From Paraspadella gotoi (lineage: Eukaryota > Animalia > Chaetognatha), in assembly GCA_051294375.1 (NCBI GenBank), contig CM119271.1:10407427-10471426 (forward strand): a stretch of 64,000 nucleotides of DNA, written 5' to 3'. Positions 1,640 to 16,800 of the stretch are shown in pieces. The notes beneath the pieces were generated by a model. The model ran no database searches. It had not been told where the DNA came from and saw only the letters and a list, made by a program, of their open reading frames with translations. Position numbers and translations under genes: made by a program. The number at the start of each line of letters is the position of its first letter. The stretch's first letter is position 1.

Positions 1640-3464
1640 CAAAATTTGAGTAAATTCACGCAACGACTAATTGATTGATACTAAAAATAATCCTTGAAAA
1701 TTCCAGTGCAACTACGTCTCCCTCCAAATCGGCAAGCGATGCACCAATCCCGCGCCAAAAGTAGAAAAGCAGCGCGGCGAGGGTTTCTGCTTTGATCACG
1801 CGCGCAAGGCTAAGTGGAGCCGTCGCGCTAGAAGTCGGACCAAGCGCTCGAACGAGGATGCGTCCGTCTCTATTCTCTCGCGTCTCAGCGATCGCTACCT
1901 CGGCGACTCCATCCTCCGCGGCTTCAAACCCGCCTCCAAATCCTCCGCCGCGCCCAACGAATTTCCCGCCGCCCCGCCCATTCCCAAGAACTGGGCCGGC
2001 GCGGAGAGCGCCGCCGCTAAAGCCCTCGAGGCGGAGAGCGACGACGCCGATTCCGACGCCGAGTTTGAAGTGATGGAGGCGGCGTGGCGCGGCGACGCCG
2101 AGAGCGACGCCGAAAGCGTCGACTCGGACCTGGAGGATCAACTGAAGTTCGCCGAGACGTACACCACGGAGGAAGTGGCGCTCGTCACGAGAGAAAAACT
2201 CATTCGCCTGCAGACTCTGTACATCGAGCAGTTCAAGCGGCTGCAGCACGTGATGCGAGAAAAGCGCCGCAAGTTGCTCGCCACTCGCGTGACCGAGAAG
2301 ACAAAATACGGGAGCATCTACGGCGCCAAAAACGATCTTAAAGAGAGCAAGCGGATGGAGCGGTACCGCGCCTTCAAGCGATACCATAAGCGTAGCGGCA
2401 AAGAAGGTCTTCTCCAGCAGCGACTCGACGAGCGGAGATCCCGCGTCTCCGAAGGTCTTAATTATCAGCCGCCGTCGTATCCAAAGTGCCTCGCCCTCGT
2501 GCAGGATCGCGTGCTCGGTACGGGCAATGAGCCCGTTCGGACGGTGGAGAGGCAATGCGGCGAAAAGGCGATTCCCTTAGCTAAGTATTGTCCGAAACAC
2601 ATTCTCTTGGACTCTCAACAAAATCTCTTTGTGCCCTGCGGCTGCGCAAGTCGCGACGGAGGCGCCGGTTCATCTAATGCGATGCCTCGTTGTCCCGTTC
2701 CCGTCGCCAACGTGGTGCCCTCTCCCGCCTGCGCCATTCACAAAACCGTCGAGCCCCAATCTTCCGCTGACCTGCTCGCCGTCTTAAAGAGAGAGCTCGC
2801 GCGACGGAAAAACTTCAAAACGGAGGAGGCGGGCTGCTCCTCGACCGCGGAGCCGCCCAAACAAGAGGCGAAACCGGAAGCGGCGCCGGAGGCGATGCCA
2901 GAGGCTAAGACGGAGACGGAAGCGAAGCCGGAAGTCTCTCCGAAATCGGAGCAGTTTAAAGATTTCTCTCGCGACGCGGAATTCTTGGTGAAGAAAGAGC
3001 AGAGTGTGGGCGAAAAGAGAGAAGGAGAACAAAACGGACCCCGGGAACCCGAAGTCTCGGAGACGGCAATGACCGGAGAAGAAGCCGGAGAGGAGCCGCC
3101 ACATTCTCAACAAAATGGAGAAAACGAAGCTTCCGAGGACGCAGTTAATTCTTTACCCGGGCAAGTCGCACCCGTAACATCTTTAGAAGCGGCACTTTCG
3201 GGAACGGACGTCTCGGCGAGCGCCTCCAGCACCAACGCCAGCGTCGGCGCCTCTCAAAGCGCCGCCAGCGTTAGCACCTGCGACAACGGCTCCATTCCCT
3301 CTAGCGCTAGTCAGACGGAAGAAGCCATGGAGGGCGTCGACGACGACGACGCCCTCGCCGTCGACAACGGGACGCAGACGACGATGATGTCTCTTTCTTT
3401 TCAGTCGTCGAATGGAACCGACGATTCTTACGCAAGTCTTAACGATACGAACGAGGGCGTGTGA
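1350..3464 (+). CDS. KANSL2: KAT8 regulatory NSL complex subunit 2 (exons 1350-1577 and 1707-3464; GC-AG intron)
   Basis: [26 protein letters not shown]|[15 protein letters not shown], and [37 protein letters not shown]. The start could alternatively be a later Met. Confidence 0.92.
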
Positions 3465-3686
3465 AGGCTCGAATTATTTTAATTTCAGGGCGAGTCGGAG
3501 TGTTATAACCGATTAAGATATTTAATCAATTGTTCCGAGTTAACAAAGCCGAATGGATAAATAAGGAGATTGCTGTTAGCAATTGATTATGATTATTTTC
3601 CGTTTCCGTGACATTAGGCCCAAACGCTTTTAAAAGTTTTTTAACTTGAAATGTAAAAAAAACTGTCCTTTTCCTTTGGCGACCCC

Positions 3687-4049
3687 ATGGCCTCCCTTTC
3701 GCCGCGACAGGCCCTTTGGCGGCTGCACCGAACGGTAAGCATGGTGTTTCGCGAGGACCGTTACGCCATCGTGGAAGCCAGAAAAAAAATTCGTGAAGAA
3801 TTCGAGAAAAACCGGAACGTGGAAGATGCCGAGAAAATCCGCGAACTAGTCAAGATGGCGCAAGATGCGGACGCAACGCTGCGCACCGTCGTGCAGCTCA
3901 AGTTGGACCCCGAACGCGACGTCTATCGAGTAAGGACGCACGCGGGTCTGCAGTATACGGACAATATTCCCTACGAACCTTTGCCGCCCGATTTTAAACC
4001 CGAACGACAGCGAAGACGAAAAAGAGAGGAGGAAAAGACGACAGAATGA
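3687..4049 (+). CDS. LYRM7: LYR-motif protein, complex III assembly factor LYRM7/Mzm1-like
   Basis: ALWRLHRTVSMVFREDRYAIVEARKKIREEFEKNR, and C-terminal DNIPY. Confidence 0.8.
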   Translation: MASLSPRQALWRLHRTVSMVFREDRYAIVEARKKIREEFEKNRNVEDAEKIRELVKMAQDADATLRTVVQLKLDPERDVYRVRTHAGLQYTDNIPYEPLPPDFKPERQRRRKREEEKTTE

Positions 4050-4303
4050 ACAGTGTTTTTGAGTTAAATATTTGGATTACTTTCAATTTATATTTTGAAC
4101 GTTATTATTTTTTTTTTTCGCCAAACACTACATTTTATCAAATTGCGCGCGAACTTTAATCGCATTCACTTATTATTTATTTCATCATTTGTTCTCATTT
4201 TCTACCGTCAATCGTTTTCGTCGCGTCCCTAACGGCCTCGTCGGACGTCTTTTGTTTTTGTTTCCAGCGCGGACGCTCGGATCTCCCCGTCAACTTAGAT
4301 GCG

Positions 4304-4657
4304 ATGCTATCCGCGGAATCGACTGAAGAAATCGTTTCCCTTCTCGACGAGGCCTCCTTCGTCATTCGCGAGATCCGCTTCGGAGTCTCCGTCGCCTGCG
4401 TCTCCACCGCGATCCCAGCCACCGACTCGACGGTCTACTTGAACATCCGTACCCTAGAGGGCGTCGACCTCTTCGTCCGCCTGACCCACAGCGGGTTCTG
4501 CGTCGTCGGCTCCGCCTTCGACGTCCTCGATCCTGCGGAGCGACATTCGGAGCACTTCGAGTGCATCAACGCTTTGCTCGATAAGAAGAGTCCCGGTTAC
4601 CGTCAGGCGTTTGGCCAGTCTCTCATCGACAAGCTCTCCGCCATTTGCGGCAATTGA
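4304..4657 (+). CDS. GSKIP: GSK3B-interacting protein (DUF727)
   Basis: YLNIRTLEG and FECINALLDKKSPGYRQAFGQSLIDKL motifs. Confidence 0.9.
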   Translation: MLSAESTEEIVSLLDEASFVIREIRFGVSVACVSTAIPATDSTVYLNIRTLEGVDLFVRLTHSGFCVVGSAFDVLDPAERHSEHFECINALLDKKSPGYRQAFGQSLIDKLSAICGN

Positions 4658-4696
4658 TCAATCTCCGTCTCCTCCCTCCCCACACATTCCCAAAAA

Positions 4697-7600
4697 ATGA
4701 GCGGCGACGACGACGCCGCCGCCGTAAAAGCCGACCGCGTCGCCAACGTTGTTTTGGTCCTGAGCGGAAAGGGCGGCGTCGGGAAGAGCATGACCGCCTC
4801 GCGCCTGGCGGTGGCGCTGCATCGACGCGGACTTCGGGTCGGCTTTCTCGACGTTGACCTTTGCGGTCCGTCCGCGCCGAGAATTTTCGGAGTCGCCGAT
4901 CGAGATGTTCACAATTGTTCGCAGGTATAATTTTTTTAAAGTTTTATGTTTACTAGGCCTCCCAAAAATATCCCACTTTGGAAAAGTTGTTGTTCTTGCA
5001 AAGTTTCTCATTCCAATTTTATTGATAAAAACGAATATCACAATTTATGGTTCCAAGTGGAACCGGGATTCTTCATGGTTCTTCCCCACCAACAAGTGAG
5101 CATCTGCTCTCCAAACGCGACATCTCCCGAGAAAAAACGAAGAGGAAAACTCCTCTTCCCCGCCTTCTCTTCCCCCTCCCGTACGCTACCTCAGTACGCC
5201 GACACGAGACAGAATCACTCGTAGCCAAGCAAACCAAGAGGGGGGAATCCCGCGAAGACTTCCGGTGACGTGCCACGCCCACTTGACCGGACGTCGTAGA
5301 AGGGGGGGATGAGAAACCGCAAAAAACCAGTCCATGGACGAAAGCCGGGCCTGGAGAACCTGACGGCCGGACGAGGCAACGGCCGAAAGAGCTGTCGGGC
5401 GATCAGTTGGCGTCCTTAGACGTCCCTGGAGCCCCGCCCCTACGCTTGGGAGGCGGCGAAGACTTGCGAGGCCGGTAGGGACGGCGAGCGGACTACGCGG
5501 ACTGCCACGCCCACGCTTGCGGCTAGCAGAACAGGCGCAATTGTGTGGCGCCCCGGAGCGGAGAAGCGAAGAATGGAACGCTTGAGTGACGTCTGTGGAG
5601 CGGTCTCCGAAAAAGAACGACGTGGAGGGCGGAGAACTGGACAGAACTGTCTTGAGATCCGAAGGGGCAGCGTCGACAACTAAGCGCCGAGACTCGGAGA
5701 GGGCCGAACCAAAAATCGCCGCCAAACCCGACGAGGCGTCTCCAAGGGGCTTGGCAAGATCGTCAAGGTGGCCTGCGTCCACTGCACCGGGCCCCTCCGA
5801 GCGTAGGGCCTCAACCATGAGGCGGAGAGCGTCAGCGACAAAGGACAGCATGAGCGGACGCTCCGGCGTCCCTCATGATGCGCTCAAAAGCCTTGAAAGC
5901 GCGCGTCGTCTTGGAGTCCTTCCGAACGGCGTCGAACTGAGCGGCAAGGCAACTCTTGAGCAGGAGGACGAAACTCCGCCGGCGAAGAAACATCCGACCA
6001 GCGCGGAAACACGTATTGGCGGAAAGCACGTCCCACGACGGTAAAAGAACGTCGTCCTGGCCAACTCTGCGCAAATCCTTCCACTGCTGCAGGACCCACT
6101 CCGAAGGCTGTATAGAAGCACGACGAGACAAGAAGTTGTCAAAACCCGCAGCAGACTCTTCAGAGGAGGAACCCTCCTCTGATCCAGAAACGGAGGCGTC
6201 GTCGTCGACTTGCGCAGATGGGGCTCGACGAGGAAGGCGTGACGCAGTCACCCGCTCGGAGCGCGAAGGCCGATCCGCCGCCGAAGAGGCCGCCAAAGAA
6301 CGCGAAGACTCCAAGTCGCTGGCGAACAAACGAAGATCGACGAAGAACGGCGAAATGGCGAACAGAGGCGTCCAAGAACCATGAAGAAAACGTACATGGA
6401 AAAAAAGAGAAATCATTGAAAAATGACAGTCTCAAAAAAGGAACCCCAAAAAACACCCACCAAACAAGACAAGCGAGCCTGAGCCGCCCTCACCACCGGT
6501 GGTGCCAGGGGTGGACGGTGGGTGGTTGTTGGTGGGGAAGAACCATGAAGAATCCCGGTTCCACTTGGAACCATAAATTCTATCATGTAGTTCTTCCCCA
6601 CCAACAAGTGAGCCTGTAACAAGACCAGGCGAAGGCCCGACAAAAAACAAACAAACAAAGTCGAGTTAGGTGGGGCACAGGAGGAAAACCCCTCTGTACG
6701 CCGAATGTACGCCAAAAAAAGGCGAAAACCAAAACAGAAAAGAAAGAAGTACTCACCGCCGAAGACTCTCCAACTCGGAACGAGACGAGCGGCGAAACTC
6801 CTTAAATTCGCGACGAACGCTAGGAAAGAGCGTTGCCAATTTGGAGTAGAACTGCCTCCATCTGAAGGGCATGACTTCGGCCTGACCAGAAAAGCCCGGA
6901 ATGGCTGATGGTGGAGGCGGCGGTGGAGGCGGCGCGAAGGCGGCGGCGGAAGAGACATGAGGGTAGTCGAGTTGAAAACACGCGCCTCAGTCCAAAAAAC
7001 GGAGAGCACTGGACAAACAAGGGGCCGAAACAAGGTTCTTCCCCCCTGCAGCCGTACTAAGCGCCGAGGGCAAACGAGAGGGCCGAGTCGCGGCTCTTCC
7101 CTCCGCAGCCGCGCAGGGTGCGTCGAGGGCAAGCGAAAGGGCCGAGTCAAGGCTCTTCCCTCCGAAGCCACGCACAACGAAGACGAAAAAGATGGCGGCC
7201 GTGAAGAGAGAACTTCAAAAAAGCCACGTGTTGAAGAATATCTGTATTCTGAACTCCAAAAAAAGAGAAACGAAAAATATGCAAAATTATTTCAACAAAA
7301 ATAATCAAAAAATATTTTCGTAAAAAAGCCGGGAGACTGTGAGCGCAAAGGCGCGAACAGAAGAAGTGATTCTGTCTCGTGTCGGCGTACTGAGGTAGCG
7401 TACGGAGGGGGAAGAGAAGGCGGGGAAGAGGAGTTTTCCTCTTCGTTTTTCTCTCGGGAGATGTCGCGTTTGGAGAGCAGATGCTCACTTGTTGTGGGAA
7501 GAACTACATGATAGAATTAAAAATTCTCAGGAAGAGAATTATGGACTTTCCACGCCACTTTATGTGGCGTACCACTTCCGGTTAAAAAATAACTTGTTTT

Positions 7601-10600
7601 TAGGAATAAAACGATTTTAAACTTAAATTATTTATTTTATGTTAATTATACACAGCTGAATGATTATTTTACTTTTTATGAATTATAATTTAAATGTAAA
7701 TTTTTAAAAATATTAAATATTTTTATCAATATTACCTCGAAATAAAAAAGATGGGAAATAATCGTATTTTTGAAAGATTTTTCAAATACTATTCTTTTAA
7801 ATTAACAATTATTTTACTATTATATTTTATAAATATGTGTTTAATATTTTTTTATTAGTTAACTGATCCATAATGACATTAATAAGAACAATTGTGATAA
7901 GGCGATAAGTGGGCTGAAGACTGCATTCAGTAACTTCTATGCCCCTCAGCAGCCACAGTCCTGGCTTGGAACCAGGCTTGAGGGTTTTCCACGCCTCCAT
8001 AGTGGTCTACGGTCGTCCTCTTGCTTCCCACAGGGTCATTACCAAGTGAGATTGAACCCGGTACCTAGTGGTCATGAGCTGATGGCTTTACTCAATGAGC
8101 AACCGGGTCACGACTAAAGGTGTTATGATTATTGGCAGGTGGATTTAGGCCATGCCCGACTACACAATTATTAACAATAATTAAAATATTTTGATTAAAA
8201 ATAAAGTGCAAAATACAAAATAATCTTTGAAGAAGTAAAAATAAAATTTAAAAAATAGAAAGTTTGTATCTTTTCCTTTCTTTTCATTTTTATTATTAAT
8301 ATTAGAGTTCAATGAAAATAAAAATCTCTACAACTTTAACTCTAATAAAAATATAATGATGAAAGATGGATAGATGCCTTAACTCACCATAGCCAGTCCA
8401 AAACGGCAAGACAGCTATTTTTTAAATGAATAATTTATATAGTTTGTATTGCATTGTCACCAAAATTGCGAGCGGACGTCGCGATAAATGATTATAGAGA
8501 ATCGATGCTTCCGAGACAACTAATTCTTGTGCTAACTCAGCACTAAAACTCTCGGTTACGTAGATATAGCGCCGAGGAAACTAGGCCACCGGATCTAAGG
8601 CCCAATGACGATTGTAACGTCTCACAGCAGACCTGAGGTCCAGACGATAGAGAAATGCCCAGACTACAAGGTCATGTAGCAAGTATAAAGTAATTGTACT
8701 ACTGACTGTATTAGAAGTCTGGGCAAAATAAATATATTCTGGCAACTTGAGTAAACCTCGGTTATCAAAGAATCCTTTCACCGAACTACAGTCGAGCCTC
8801 AGTCGTCTTCGTTTCCTTACATTGTAAAGTTTCTCTCATTCGAATTTCAAGCCAGTAACGAAAACAATGTTTTTTTTCCCTTTTTAATTGTATTGTTATC
8901 AACTACATTTTTAACCTTCCAATAATATCGTCATATATAAATTCGGCATTAAATATGAAATAAATATTTTTCTAAATTGAAAAATATAGTGAATCTTAAA
9001 GACATAATATCAACTGTGAAGGTTTAAAGGTAACTTTGAGGACACCGATATTACTAACTTATAAAATTAATGACATAATATAGATTATTAAATTATGCTA
9101 AACTCGTTTCTTTTTCCCCCTATCGTTTGAAGTATCTTATTTAAAAAATATGGGTGCATATAATTTTTTATTACCATCATAATTTGTGAGAAGCACAATT
9201 TAATTTATTCCAAAGTTTTACCCAAATTTTTTGCGAGACTGTTTCTCTCCCTCAATTTTATCCCTCCTTTCACTGGATTTGAAAGCCTTTAAATCTTGAA
9301 ATAAAAATTTTTTAGCATAATTTTACTTTCGCAAAGCTGGGTTAGGGGAGGTTTAGGGTTATGGGTGGTTTATGAGTGGTTATGGTTAAGACGGTTTAAG
9401 GTTAAGGTAATTTTTTTAAAAGTAGATTTTTAAGTGGTTTTTCCAAAGGCCAAAACATCAGTTAGGGAAAGTTTTTACCCATAATTTTGTCAAAAGCCAG
9501 CATTTTATAATATAAAGCCTTTTTTAATTGTTATCCTTTGACATACAAAATGTAATTATAAAGCAAAACCAAATAATTAGGTATTAAGATTATAAGTAAC
9601 TGTATTTTGATTAATTACTAAGTGTGCTGGCTCAATAATTGCTTGCTTCTTTTAAAAATTCTTATCTTTTTTCAACCGGAAGTGGTTTGCGCAAAAAGTG
9701 GCGCGGAAAGTCCATATAGCGCATCCGGAGAAATTTTTAATGGTGATATTCTTTTCTCCACCTAATTTGGAATGAGAAACTTTGCGAGAATCAAAAGACT
9801 TTAAAAAAAGTTTGATATTCCTGGGAGATCTAAATTGTTTACCCAAACATGTCAATGTGTCATCTTTGCGAAATTTTACAATTTAAACAAGTGTTTAGGA
9901 TTCTATTTGCATGTTGTTTCAAAAACTGTTATTTCGTTGTAAACACTAAATTTGTATTTATTTGTATACTATAGTATACTACTATATACTAGTTTATGGT
10001 GTATACTAGTGTATACTATATTTTATATATACTTTATAGTGCTTTTATTGTGAGTACTTAATAGCTTCGTATTACCACAATATCAAAAATATTAAAATAA
10101 ATAAATTATCAGGGATGGGTACCAGTTTACGTCGACGGCGCGGAGCAACGCCTCTCCGTCATGTCGATCGGGTTTTTGCTGAAATCTTACGACAGCGACG
10201 CCGTTGTGTGGCGAGGGCCCAAAAAGAACGCTATGGTCAAACAGTTCCTCACGGACGTTACGTGGGGAGACTTGGACTATCTGGTCGTCGACACGCCGCC
10301 CGGGACCTCCGACGAACACATCAGCGTCGTCGAGGCGGTTAAGGTTTGCCTTTTAATAACTAGGCCTATAAAAAGTAATAATTTCTGAATAATACTAAAA
10401 GACAGGTTTTAAAAAACGGTCTTGGTCTCATTTTTAGGATCTCTTCGGCGATTCCAAAGTCGGCGCCGTTCTGGTGACGACGCCCCAGGCGATGGCGGTG
10501 GACGACGTTCGGCGGGAGATCGCCTTTTGCCGCAAGACTCGCCTCTCGATCATCGGCCTCGTCGAAAACATGTCCGGCTTCGTCTGCCCGAACTGCGACG

Positions 10601-10797: not shown

Positions 10798-11646
10798 AAG
10801 CCGACGATGGAAAATCGGGCCGCCGATTTTTATCGGACTTCGATCCTTTACGTCACCGATAACCGCAATCGTTGCCGGTTTTATTCCCTAAACGATCTCC
10901 ATTCTCTTGTTAAACTACGTAAATCGTGTGAAATGGTGAAATGTTTTCTGTTGTATCCGCGTTAGACTCTCGTTAAGAGAGACGAGTGAGAACGATGATG
11001 GTGGGACAAGATAAAATAAGACCTTCGATCCTTTCTGTATCTCGAACGTGTCCCGCCGGACTGGTTGAGGGGAGGAACTAGGAACCGTCATTAAAGATAA
11101 AAACGCGAATAGCAAAAACAAAAAAAAACGGCGATTATTCAAAATTAGGCGATTCCCTGTTTTTGTTTTGACATTAGGGCAACTCGACTCTCACCTGATC
11201 GGAAGACATTTTTTCGAAATTAACTCGATGCGTTTAGATTATTATTATTATTATTATTTGTTGGCCTTCATCTTCTGTGAAAGCGATCATTTTTTTAAAA
11301 AATGTCTACAGTGAAGCTCTGACTTTATTCGGTGTAATTTTCGATTTACGATGACATAAAATGAATAAATGACAAGCGATAATCTCATCTAGGTATTGCG
11401 TATATACAAAAAATTATAATTCTATCGTCACCCTGATGTTTTTATAAGCATTACAACTTTAATTTTTTAAACTTTATACGTTGTTAAGTAAACTGGAAAA
11501 TGGTTCATAAATTGAAGTGAATAACCAAAATATTAACTAAGTTTGAAACTAAAAAAATATTTGAATATTAAATAATAATAAAAAGTAATAAAAACCCCAT
11601 GTGGTCAGACGTAAACAGATACTCGTAGATACTCGTACGTTCAGCG

Positions 11647-12393
11647 ATGTGTTTACAAATCGGACCGGAACCCCTGAAGCTTGAAGAAATCGACAAAATA
11701 AACGCAACAATGATTTCTCTGGACAGAGACGGTGTCACGGAGAACAGCCTGTTTCATTCTTACCGATGGTGCGCCAAGCATCGGTTAATATCTAATTCAA
11801 AGCCGTGCCTCATTTGCCATAAGCCAATGCGACTTATACCGGATAAATTATGCTATGAATGGCGGTGCGTACCTTGCAAGCAGCGATGCTCGGTCCGAAA
11901 AAGCAGTTTTATGCATAACTCGAATTTACCACCTTGGAAACACATTTGGTTTTTATACTTCTGGAGTCAAGACTTGCCAATTACCAGTATCATTCACGAA
12001 ATAAATATTAGCGGTCATACCGGCATCTCATGGATAAAAAATGTCAGAAAAGTTTGCGCTTCTTACTTCTCTGATAATCGCACTCCAATCGGCGGCGTCG
12101 ACTCAAATGGAAATCCCAAAATTGTTGAGGTTGAGCTTTTTTATGACGAAAAACAGAAAATGAGATCGATTCTTTGTGGGGTAGAGAGGGATGACCCGAG
12201 AAACTGTTTCTTCGTTTTAATAGACAATAAATCTGAATCTTTAATTCCACTCTTAGTAGAAAATGTGTCTCCCCGCTCGATCATTTATTCTGACTCGATG
12301 AAAGCATTCGGGGACATTGCGTCAATTAATAAATTTAACTATCAGCATTTCTGTTTTGAAGAAAAACGTCTGATGAGTGTCAATGAGAACTAA
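11647..12393 (+). CDS. Merlin/IS1595 (ISXO2-like) transposase-derived protein, copy 1
   Basis: CxxC...WRCxxC Zn ribbon, SVRKSSF, WFLYFWS, PIGG...IVEVE, GVER..CFF, IIYSD...HF. The first catalytic DE motif is altered and the C-terminal motif is missing. Confidence 0.8.
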   Translation: MCLQIGPEPLKLEEIDKINATMISLDRDGVTENSLFHSYRWCAKHRLISNSKPCLICHKPMRLIPDKLCYEWRCVPCKQRCSVRKSSFMHNSNLPPWKHIWFLYFWSQDLPITSIIHEINISGHTGISWIKNVRKVCASYFSDNRTPIGGVDSNGNPKIVEVELFYDEKQKMRSILCGVERDDPRNCFFVLIDNKSESLIPLLVENVSPRSIIYSDSMKAFGDIASINKFNYQHFCFEEKRLMSVNEN

Positions 12394-13837: not shown

Positions 13838-16800
13838 TTGGGGACGCTTTCTCTCCCGATCTATCCTCATTCGGGGGTTTAACACGAATTATTTTGAAGA
13901 TTACCTTTATGAATTTATTTTTAAAACTCATTATCCTTTTCCTTCGACATTTGGCAGTCTTTTATTTTGGATAGGCCATTACTACCCAGTGTAATTATAT
14001 TTATTCATTGGACGCAAAAAGGTCGGCTCAGTTAAAGCTATTAATTTTTATAAATTATTTTATATTATTCCATTTCTTGTGATACCAGTTTTTTTTAATG
14101 AAGAATGAAATTTTTTTTCAAGATTTAACTTTAAGTGCTCTTTTTTTAATACAACTAAAAAAATACCTTAGTTATATATTTAAGAGAATTTTTATTTCCA
14201 AAATGTTTTTCAATTTTCAAAATATCATTCATGATATTGAAGCAGTTTTCACTTTATAAGTATTGCGCTGCCACGGATTTTTATTCGCGTAATAACGCGA
14301 TTGTTTTCTGGCCAGTTTCCATCCAGCTTATTATTATAAATAAAGTTGTCATCTAAATTACGCGTTTTCGGAATGAATGAAAGATAAGAAATAAGAAGAA
14401 AAATAAAAAAGGCAAGACGAAAAAGAGTATAAGGCGGAGACTGGAAAGAAGAAAATAGGGACTACTGGACTGCTATTGAACGCTGGATAAACCGTCTTTT
14501 TTAATAAACATTGCCATTAAAAATTTATTTTAAATCAGTTTGTGCATTAAGATCACCGAACGGAAAAACCTGGTCTGCAAATGTACAATTTTACCGTCCC
14601 AGAAAAATGTAGACGATAAAATCGTTGAGCTCATTTGTAAATTAATTCGACGGAAAATCAGATATGAATTTACAAATAGGGCCGAAGCCGCTGGAGCTTA
14701 AAGAAATCGCCGAGACAAACGCAACAATGATATCTCTGGACAGGGACGGAGTCACAGAGGATAGCCCGATTTTTACCTTACAATGGTGCGCAAAGCGTCG
14801 ATTAATATCCAATTCAAAATTATGCCCCTCATGCCGGAATGCAATGTCCCTCAATAGAAGACAAAAAACTGGTTATTTTTGGCGTTGTTTTTCCTGCAAA
14901 AAAAAAAGTGTAAGCGGTATTAAGAATAATAGTTTTTTCGATAGTACGAATTCACCACTTTGGAAACACATTTGGTTTTTATACTACTGGAGTCAAAGTA
15001 TGTCAGCCAGAAATATTATTTACGAACTCGGCATTGACTCAAAATCAGCCTGTGCCTGGACACAAAACGTCAGAAAAATTTGCGCAACTTACTGCGTTGA
15101 TTCGTGTAACCCAATCGGCGGCGTTGATTCTCATGGAAATCCCAAAATCGTTGAGCTCGAGCTGTTTTTTCACAAAAAAAAGAAACTGCGACGAATTCTT
15201 GGTGGAATAGAAAGGGATGACCCGCGAAACTGCTTCTTTGTTGTCCTGGATGACAAAGACGAAACTTTGTTTCCAATTATCATGGAAAATGTGGCTCCTT
15301 CCTCCATCGTTTGCTCAGATTCATCAAAAAGTTTCACGGACATTGCCTCAATTGCAAAATATGATTATCGGCATTACTGCTTTGGAAGTAAAGGTTTTGT
15401 CCAATTGGTGTTATTGTATAGTTGATAGTCATAATAAAATTATAGATCAGCCCGTTTAAAGCTCTTGAAAATAGCAAGACCAGTATGAAATGATGCAAGT
15501 TAGCCTGGCGTAGTGTATGCAGCCATAAAAAAAAAATCGGTGATTGAAATCGTCATCTCTGAACAGGTTATATGAAACATAGTTTTCTTCATATATTAAA
15601 AAAAAATCAATGTAAAATATTTGGTAGTTAGGATATGTCTAAATATAGAATAATTTAAAAAAATTAATTTGTGAACTTATAATAGTCCAATTCTATAAAC
15701 CATTTTATCCATTTTATTTCATCTTAGAATACTGATTTATAAAAAATTATCCAAAAAAATTGAATCCTTTCTTCTTTCCATACATTTATTTGTTTGTCTA
15801 TCCAATTGTAACTTTAACTTATTATTACATTTCCGTAAATTGATGGATTGATCTAAAATTTTATGTATGGCCATAAAAAAGGTTGATTGAGCTTAATCTT
15901 AAGTTTGGACAAAATCATTCTGGTAAAAATAATTAAATAAAAAAATAAAATAATAATTTTAATTATTTATTTTTTATTTTAAAAAGTAAAAATATATAAT
16001 AATAATAATAAGTATAAACATAATAACAATAATGACTTTTTCTTTTTGTCACTCAATATCCCTTTTTATTTTTTTATCTTTTTTTCTTTTAATCTATTTC
16101 TCATTTTCTTTTTTGATCTTTTATTTTTAATTTACCTTTTTTTCAAGCTCCTTACTTTTTATATTTTTACCATTCTAATTCATCTCCTCTATCTTTATAC
16201 ATTCATGTGAGCTTTGTTTTATTCTTAAAAGTATAAATATTAACTTAAATAAAAAAAATATTAATTTTTTTAAAAAAAATCAGAAATACAGGAATAAGGA
16301 ATACAGGAATACAATAAAAAAATAAAGTCAAATCTTGAAAAAGTAGGAAAAAATTTGTCATTTTAGTTTTCAAATTGATTGATTTAAAGTATTATTTATG
16401 TAAAGCTTTAAGTTTGGCTTACAGATTAAAAAATATGATAAAAATTTGTATGGGTAGGCTTTGCCACGTTGACTTGCATCGTGGCGTATCGCTTTTTACC
16501 TTTCAAATGAGTTACCTTGTAGTTTATTATTTTAACAAAAAAGCTATAAAAAGTGAAATTAATTCTCAGATTTACAAAAGTTGTAAACTTTACTATTAAT
16601 CACTTTTTTTAAAAAATGTTTTGTAGTAATGTTTTCTTTTTTACTCATTAACACCAATGGGTCAGACAAAGAAAATACCTTTGCCCACACACAAACTTTG
16701 AAAAATGTTTGGGGACAGTTTCTCTCCCTCTCGATCCTCCATTGGGGTGTTCAAACGAGATATTTTGAAGATTACCTTCATGAATTTATTTTCAAAACTC

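Follow-up and report, generated by a model that had tools for sequence, protein, structure and literature searches.

A gag-only DIRS1-like element of Paraspadella gotoi with its ICR in a predicted gag intron, and the probable origin of this layout in an RT-encoding clade

Introduction

Retrotransposons are expected to lose introns when they are copied through RNA, and introns have been noted in some fungal YR retrotransposons. How, then, could a retrotransposon keep a spliceosomal intron, and what would follow if this intron contained a sequence involved in replication? The question is raised by a DIRS1-like element of the chaetognath Paraspadella gotoi, which we analyzed in a stretch of 64,000 nucleotides (hereafter the window; assembly GCA_051294375.1, contig CM119271.1, positions 10,407,427 to 10,471,426). 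The original prediction, made from the letters of the window, placed the ICR of this element inside an intron of gag and proposed that splicing acts as a switch between a Gag message and a replication template. In DIRS1-like elements, the ICR is placed at the 3' end in those parts of the published descriptions that were available to us (PMC7192593, PMC3266345, PMC8969392). The available part of one of these sources also reports that DIRS-1 without the ICR made cDNA and completed no retrotransposition, and that the DIRS-1 RT acts in trans (PMC7192593).

Structure and classification of the element

The element is non-autonomous and occupies positions 5042 to 7517 on the minus strand (2,476 nt), with a terminal ATT at each end (7517-7515 and 5044-5042) and no longer target duplication. 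Self-comparison of the window delimited a right inverted terminal repeat (ITR; 5068-5219, minus strand), which matches the left ITR (7365-7517, minus strand) at 95% over 156 nt and is followed by a right extension (rE; 5042-5067, minus strand). Contigs from three sequencing runs bridge the flanks without the element, joining position 5044 to 7519 or 7525. Neither the open reading frames nor a Pfam scan of the window revealed an RT or YR frame between the ITRs.

The ICR (88 nt, 6526-6613, minus strand) was confirmed inside the predicted intron through its complementarity to both element ends. It is complementary to the right end at 54 of 54 nt (5042-5095), with the rE complementary to the ICR alone, and to the left end at approximately 92% over 38 nt (7483-7518), where the outer 36 nt or so of the left ITR are complementary to its left half. 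The AAT of its circular junction (6579-6577) matches the ATT at both element ends. This single ICR precedes most of gag, at a distance of 752 nt to the left ITR and 1,307 nt to the right ITR, and falls entirely within a 438-nt GT-AG segment. Its predicted fold is a long hairpin with imperfect pairing (z -8.7), and it is an imperfect self-palindrome at 81%, a value of 77% being found for the ICR of a control element (L012) and of 76% for the equivalent hairpin of a relative (L009). Directly after the ICR stands a C-rich motif (6481-6525, minus strand), which occupies the same place in relatives; its score was reached by 0 of 500 shuffles for L009, 1 of 500 for L002 and 0 of 500 for L004, and the motif is a candidate splicing, export or packaging signal.

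With its ITRs, an ICR that complements each terminus and has a 3-nt circular junction, and NTT at both ends, the element is a gag-only DIRS1-like retrotransposon. By the position of its ICR, it is a variant rather than a canonical member of this class. As in the available parts of the descriptions of DIRS-1 of Dictyostelium, we observed ITRs, a right extension, a two-part ICR (88 nt in both elements) and ATT ends with an AAT junction (PMC3266345, PMC9210276, PMC8969392). Across 28 annotated DIRS1-like elements, ATT/ATT/AAT occurs more often than any other pattern (PMC3266345). Unlike DIRS1-like elements, the window element has its ICR in a predicted gag intron instead of at the 3' end, this copy encodes neither a pol (RT/RH/MT) nor a YR, and its gag has no Pfam match. 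Imperfect direct repeats are present in the 5' untranslated region (7174-7011; 78% over 108 nt). The element is itself embedded in another multi-copy repeat, and pieces of its flanks (4990-5041 and 7518-7590) recur inverted at 9692-9790.

The predicted gag intron and the gag-like protein

On the minus strand, we retrieved the intron exactly as it had been proposed (6319-6756, 438 nt), with the donor CG/GTGAGT at 6756 and a pyrimidine-rich acceptor CAG/ at 6319. The predicted intron separates a predicted coding exon 1 (6757-6958, minus strand), which begins with an ATG at 6958, is rich in R and S in its 3' part and ends in phase 2, from a predicted coding exon 2 (5403-6318, minus strand; stop at 5405-5403), which encodes the body of the gag-like protein. 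Both splice sites are indeed in phase 2 in the gag-like frame, and the in-frame TGA that splicing would remove is spelled by the donor itself. The donor is the only GTRAG site between 6958 and 6300, and the T content is 0.39 in the intron versus 0.25-0.26 in the exons. However, 65 of 1,377 GT/AG pairs are frame-compatible and reach the terminal stop; because a phase match alone is this common, our argument for the intron relies on the quality of the donor together with homology and conservation.

As assembled, the window copy contains five frame breaks, located near 6866 in exon 1 and near 6003, 5952, 5839 and 5489 in exon 2, and the spliced frame from the ATG at 6958 stops after 90 aa. We compared three sequencing runs (X1, X2 and X8) with the window as assembled contigs, leaving out X10 (3 small pieces). 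Among the indels listed (12 of 71), these contigs have extra letters at all five places (6866, 6003, 5952, 5839 and 5489), and the breaks are either assembly errors or decay of the window copy. With placeholders at the five breaks, the frame from the ATG at 6958 was open for 374 codons when spliced and for 68 when unspliced. When the same indels were placed randomly, at least 370 codons were obtained in 65 of 20,000 trials. Silent changes made up 6 of the 15 coding substitutions listed (from 40 of 126 substitutions listed), which is too few to judge selection. The segment 6319-6756 combines the features of a U2-type intron, namely GT-AG ends, a consensus donor, a pyrimidine tract, a restored frame and conservation in relatives, and we consider it very probable that the intron is real.

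The C-terminal part of exon 2 matched 11 proteins when 1.84 billion representatives were searched, 10 of which belong to one unnamed family of 250-370 aa. The two frames in which the window encodes exon 2 each align to the unnamed family, one of them at E 1.7e-4. Protein P0008 was removed from the matches as an RCC1 repeat. A word-based search for longer homologues of exon 2 yielded none among 5,493 candidates, and the gag-like protein had no match in Pfam, NCBIfam or PDB, nor to LAP2alpha. The first ORF of the window element is gag-like by position, its homologues being located directly upstream of a DIRS-type pol.

RT-encoding relatives

A metagenome scan returned 137 pattern matches that came down to 11 loci, 10 of which were kept. 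These fall into three lineages (L001; L002, L004, L005, L006 and L007; L003, L008, L009 and L010). L011 was dropped (E 7e-5, no match to the gag profile), as were L013-L016, which had neither the ITR/ICR pattern nor a gag-profile match. Alignment with gag in viral and prokaryote contigs, and with pol in viral contigs, gave no relatives. Like DIRS1-like elements, the relatives of the window element have a gag-like ORF, a pol of RT/RH/MT type and, in an overlapping frame, a putative YR. Their gag-like ORF is followed by the pol frame, and Pfam RVT_1 was detected in all four long pol frames scanned (L001, L002, L005 and L006), in which we also found motifs that we take to be RNase H and methyltransferase-like. 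The integrase (YR) match in the overlapping frame of L006 was below the cut-off (E 0.0013). In a quick tree that comprised 33 sequences, chosen from 120 listed matches and the loci, the pols of four relatives and 13 of the sampled ENA/Logan proteins, all unnamed, formed a long-branched clade (SH-aLRT 100), apart from fish- and amphioxus-type DIRS and with no named member among those sampled.

Gag and pol share one frame with a single TGA between them, and this TGA is followed by CT in all seven relatives with sequence past the gag stop (L001:1000, L002:2178, L003:1121, L004:1649, L005:943, L006:1420 and L010:687; CTAG in five, CTGA in one and CTTC in one). We presume that this context is readthrough-like, and a literature search on readthrough in DIRS elements found nothing. 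The stop of the gag-only window element stands in the context TGA-TCG (5405-5403).

The comparison with RT-encoding relatives that had been proposed along with the intron revealed a conserved layout, with donor, hairpin, motif and acceptor in the same order in two lineages of relatives, the predicted intron being collinear with intron 1 of L002, L004 and L009. The donor was G/GTGAGT in both loci that reach it (L002 and L009), each with an R/S-rich exon 1, and the three loci that reach the stretch past the donor (L002, L004 and L009) all contain a long imperfect hairpin (z -6.2, -5.1 and -9.9, respectively) and the post-ICR motif. The hairpin lies 68 and 86 nt from the donor in relatives, compared to 143 nt in the window. 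A sliding 86-nt hairpin scan (steps of 10) was non-discriminating: it placed this hairpin near the head of the ranking in L009, but not in L002 or L004. When spliced, L002 was open for 404 codons, compared to 81 unspliced, and L009 had no stop, which rebuilds a gag of approximately 400 codons. The phase of intron 1 is 2 in the window and L009, and 0 in L002. Between L002 and L004, we counted 12 and 22 gap columns in the introns and none in the compared exons. Among the 30 pairs of the hairpin, 18 were the same in these two loci, 2 were changed on one side, 3 on both sides, 6 were broken and 1 was gapped, and the core was 60% alike versus 85% for the outer part.

In the relatives, intron 1 leads into a small second exon of 55 or 83 nt, behind which lies a second gag intron in phase 1 (L002:880-1251, L009:811-941, L001:85). 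This second intron is free of ICR and is retained in all seven loci reaching its donor. It is absent from the window element, the lineage of which has retained intron 1. A loss of intron 2 in the window lineage would be a simpler reading than a gain elsewhere.

Intron 1 was reached by two independent lineages of relatives. Because the contigs of this clade lack termini, the hairpin of the relatives is an inferred ICR, and these elements may also carry one at the 3' end. The control L012 (70-5631), a complete fish-type DIRS, has a 3' ICR (5316-5408) and an unbroken first frame of 518 codons. It was found in a bacterial metagenome bin, likely as host contamination, and a 103-nt tandem duplication precedes its ICR. 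Overall, we consider it probable that an ICR inside the intron is common to the clade of the relatives, and the window layout was likely inherited from this RT-encoding clade.

Contigs of the sequencing runs

The contigs of X1 and X8 both leave the window at 4925, the donor of the host intron that contains the element, and judged from the contigs alone both runs are likely RNA-derived. A 6318-6757 joint was not present among the joints listed (15 of 26), to which the deep run X2 contributes most. For this DNA-like run, the joints listed reach approximately single-copy depth, but contigs show presence only, and we gave no weight to the missing joint in X2. The X1 contig with the 3' part of the intron starts at 6290, the position from which 31-mers are specific to unspliced sequence, and it ends at 6555, where a break caused by the ICR repeat is expected. 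A break located exactly where a spliced branch would cut the 31-mer graph is a hint of splicing in RNA; a variant at 6320 would yield an identical break. An X8 contig (6258-6510) spans the acceptor unbroken.

Low-depth deletion variants of the family (5542-6522, 6411-7162 and 6718-7341) retained the ICR in some cases and had lost it in others, and a low-depth X8 variant kept the donor with 26 nt of exon 1 gone. The summed depth of X2 on the element was several hundred times that on host genes, a ratio that is not a copy number.

A proposed RNA partition and alternative readings

We favor, with reasonable confidence, a reading in which the ICR is located in a predicted gag intron, this layout probably descends from the RT-encoding clade and sorting of the RNA is the likely effect of the intron. 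The full mechanism of partition is rather probable in our view, a little below this reading. Spliced RNA would serve as mRNA and would lack the ICR, so that its cDNA could not rebuild the element ends. On unspliced RNA, translation would stop early (68 codons), and this RNA, which carries the ICR, would be the sole template for new insertions. Because the cDNA of spliced RNA would be a dead end, the intron could not be lost. Spliced RNA would also be the source of Gag and any Gag-Pol in autonomous relatives, and these proteins would act in trans on unspliced genomes. Since pol continues the gag frame beyond a single TGA, it would likely need both spliced RNA and readthrough. Trans action would remove cis-preference and thereby favor gag-only derivatives such as the window element, which would borrow RT and YR.

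The idea of splicing as a switch is kept in part. There is good support for an intron, for an ICR within it and for a gag-like frame, and that spliced RNA would yield no insertions follows by analogy from the deletion of the DIRS-1 ICR. Regulation of splicing need not be invoked: a fixed partition of the RNA would be enough, and the ICR-free second intron is kept as well.

The retention of this second intron in all seven loci means that intron retention does not require an ICR, and it agrees with a reading that we regard as possible but unlikely, in which the intron is real and the placement of the ICR is incidental. The clade would copy unspliced (perhaps nuclear) RNA anyway, and the intron would offer non-coding room for the ICR. 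[quoted passage not shown] The window lineage, without intron 2 yet with intron 1, has the combination that partition predicts, with either loss or gain of intron 2 as a possible history. Moreover, even with an incidental origin, spliced RNA would still be without the ICR.

It is improbable that the template is instead an antisense full-length RNA starting from the right ITR. Such an RNA would keep the sense introns automatically and would have the ICR near its 3' end in full-length relatives, and the hairpin does lie approximately 550 nt from the contig left end in relatives of approximately 5 kb, mirroring the canonical 3' distance. However, terminal polarity is canonical with respect to the sense of gag, the extension and the long ICR half belonging to the right end as in DIRS-1 and L012. 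Marginally less probable still is that the segment is unspliced and that rearrangement in a dead non-autonomous derivative put it into gag, with splice signals arisen by chance, as the missing joint (among 15 of 26 listed), the 65 of 1,377 frame-compatible pairs and the frameshifted window copy would allow, since two RT-linked lineages share the donor, hairpin, motif and frame-restoring acceptors, indels between L002 and L004 are confined to the predicted introns and the X1 contig breaks at the predicted place.

Returning to RNA partition, we lean slightly towards its extension to the whole unnamed DIRS clade, which would have moved the ICR from the 3' end into gag intron 1, with mRNA and genome strictly separated, every protein made from RNA incapable of yielding insertions, replication only in trans and intron loss selected against.

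Comparison with known systems

In simple retroviruses, the packaging signal lies behind the splice donor and is removed from spliced mRNA, and gag is read from unspliced RNA. By contrast, the window gag itself is predicted to need splicing, and the signal would rebuild DNA ends rather than direct packaging. The BARE1/BARE2 Copia elements are similar in that translation and copying draw on different pools of RNA, Gag has a spliced RNA and a parasitic subfamily exists, according to the available part of the source (PMC3735527). They differ, in the same part, as LTR elements whose pools are set by start site and capping and not by removal of a replication signal, and their parasite is without Gag whereas the window element has Gag only (PMC3735527). 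Penelope-like elements also keep introns through retrotransposition, and the meaning of this retention is stated as unknown in the part of the report available to us (PMC8557442). An essential cis signal in the intron, as proposed for the window element, would explain retention.

No report of an ICR within an intron was found in the main texts of the openly accessible papers searched, and the word "intron" is absent from PMC3266345, PMC6681497, PMC3783388 and PMC9210276. If true, RNA partition would explain in concrete terms how a spliceosomal intron can persist in a retrotransposon. A cis signal that is essential for DIRS retrotransposition, according to the available part of the DIRS-1 work (PMC7192593), would lie inside the intron and give a direct, testable reason for its retention. 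The layout indicates that the ICR need not sit at the 3' end. Partition also predicts obligatory trans action and, with it, an abundance of non-autonomous copies. Annotation that relies on ORFs or on a 3' ICR would misread the clade.

The host locus

The element lies antisense in intron 1 of a host gene (4925-10112, plus strand) that we named NUBP2-like. On the basis of Pfam domains, this gene is preceded by others to which we assigned the names KANSL2-, LYRM7- and GSKIP-like. Host genes are tightly packed in 1698-4924 and from 10113 onward. The loose 5' end of an X1 contig, after an AG at 3618, matches a chaetognath leader-like motif, and X1 has a poly-A end at 4267. In the available part of its description, this motif was demonstrated as a trans-spliced leader (PMC2566580). 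The leader-like end at 3618, the poly-A at 4267 and a next transcript from 4268 suggest an operon resolved by trans-splicing. Further along the window, two related ORFs (11629-12393 and 14646-15425) with weak matches to ISXO2-like transposases form part of a duplication of approximately 3 kb.
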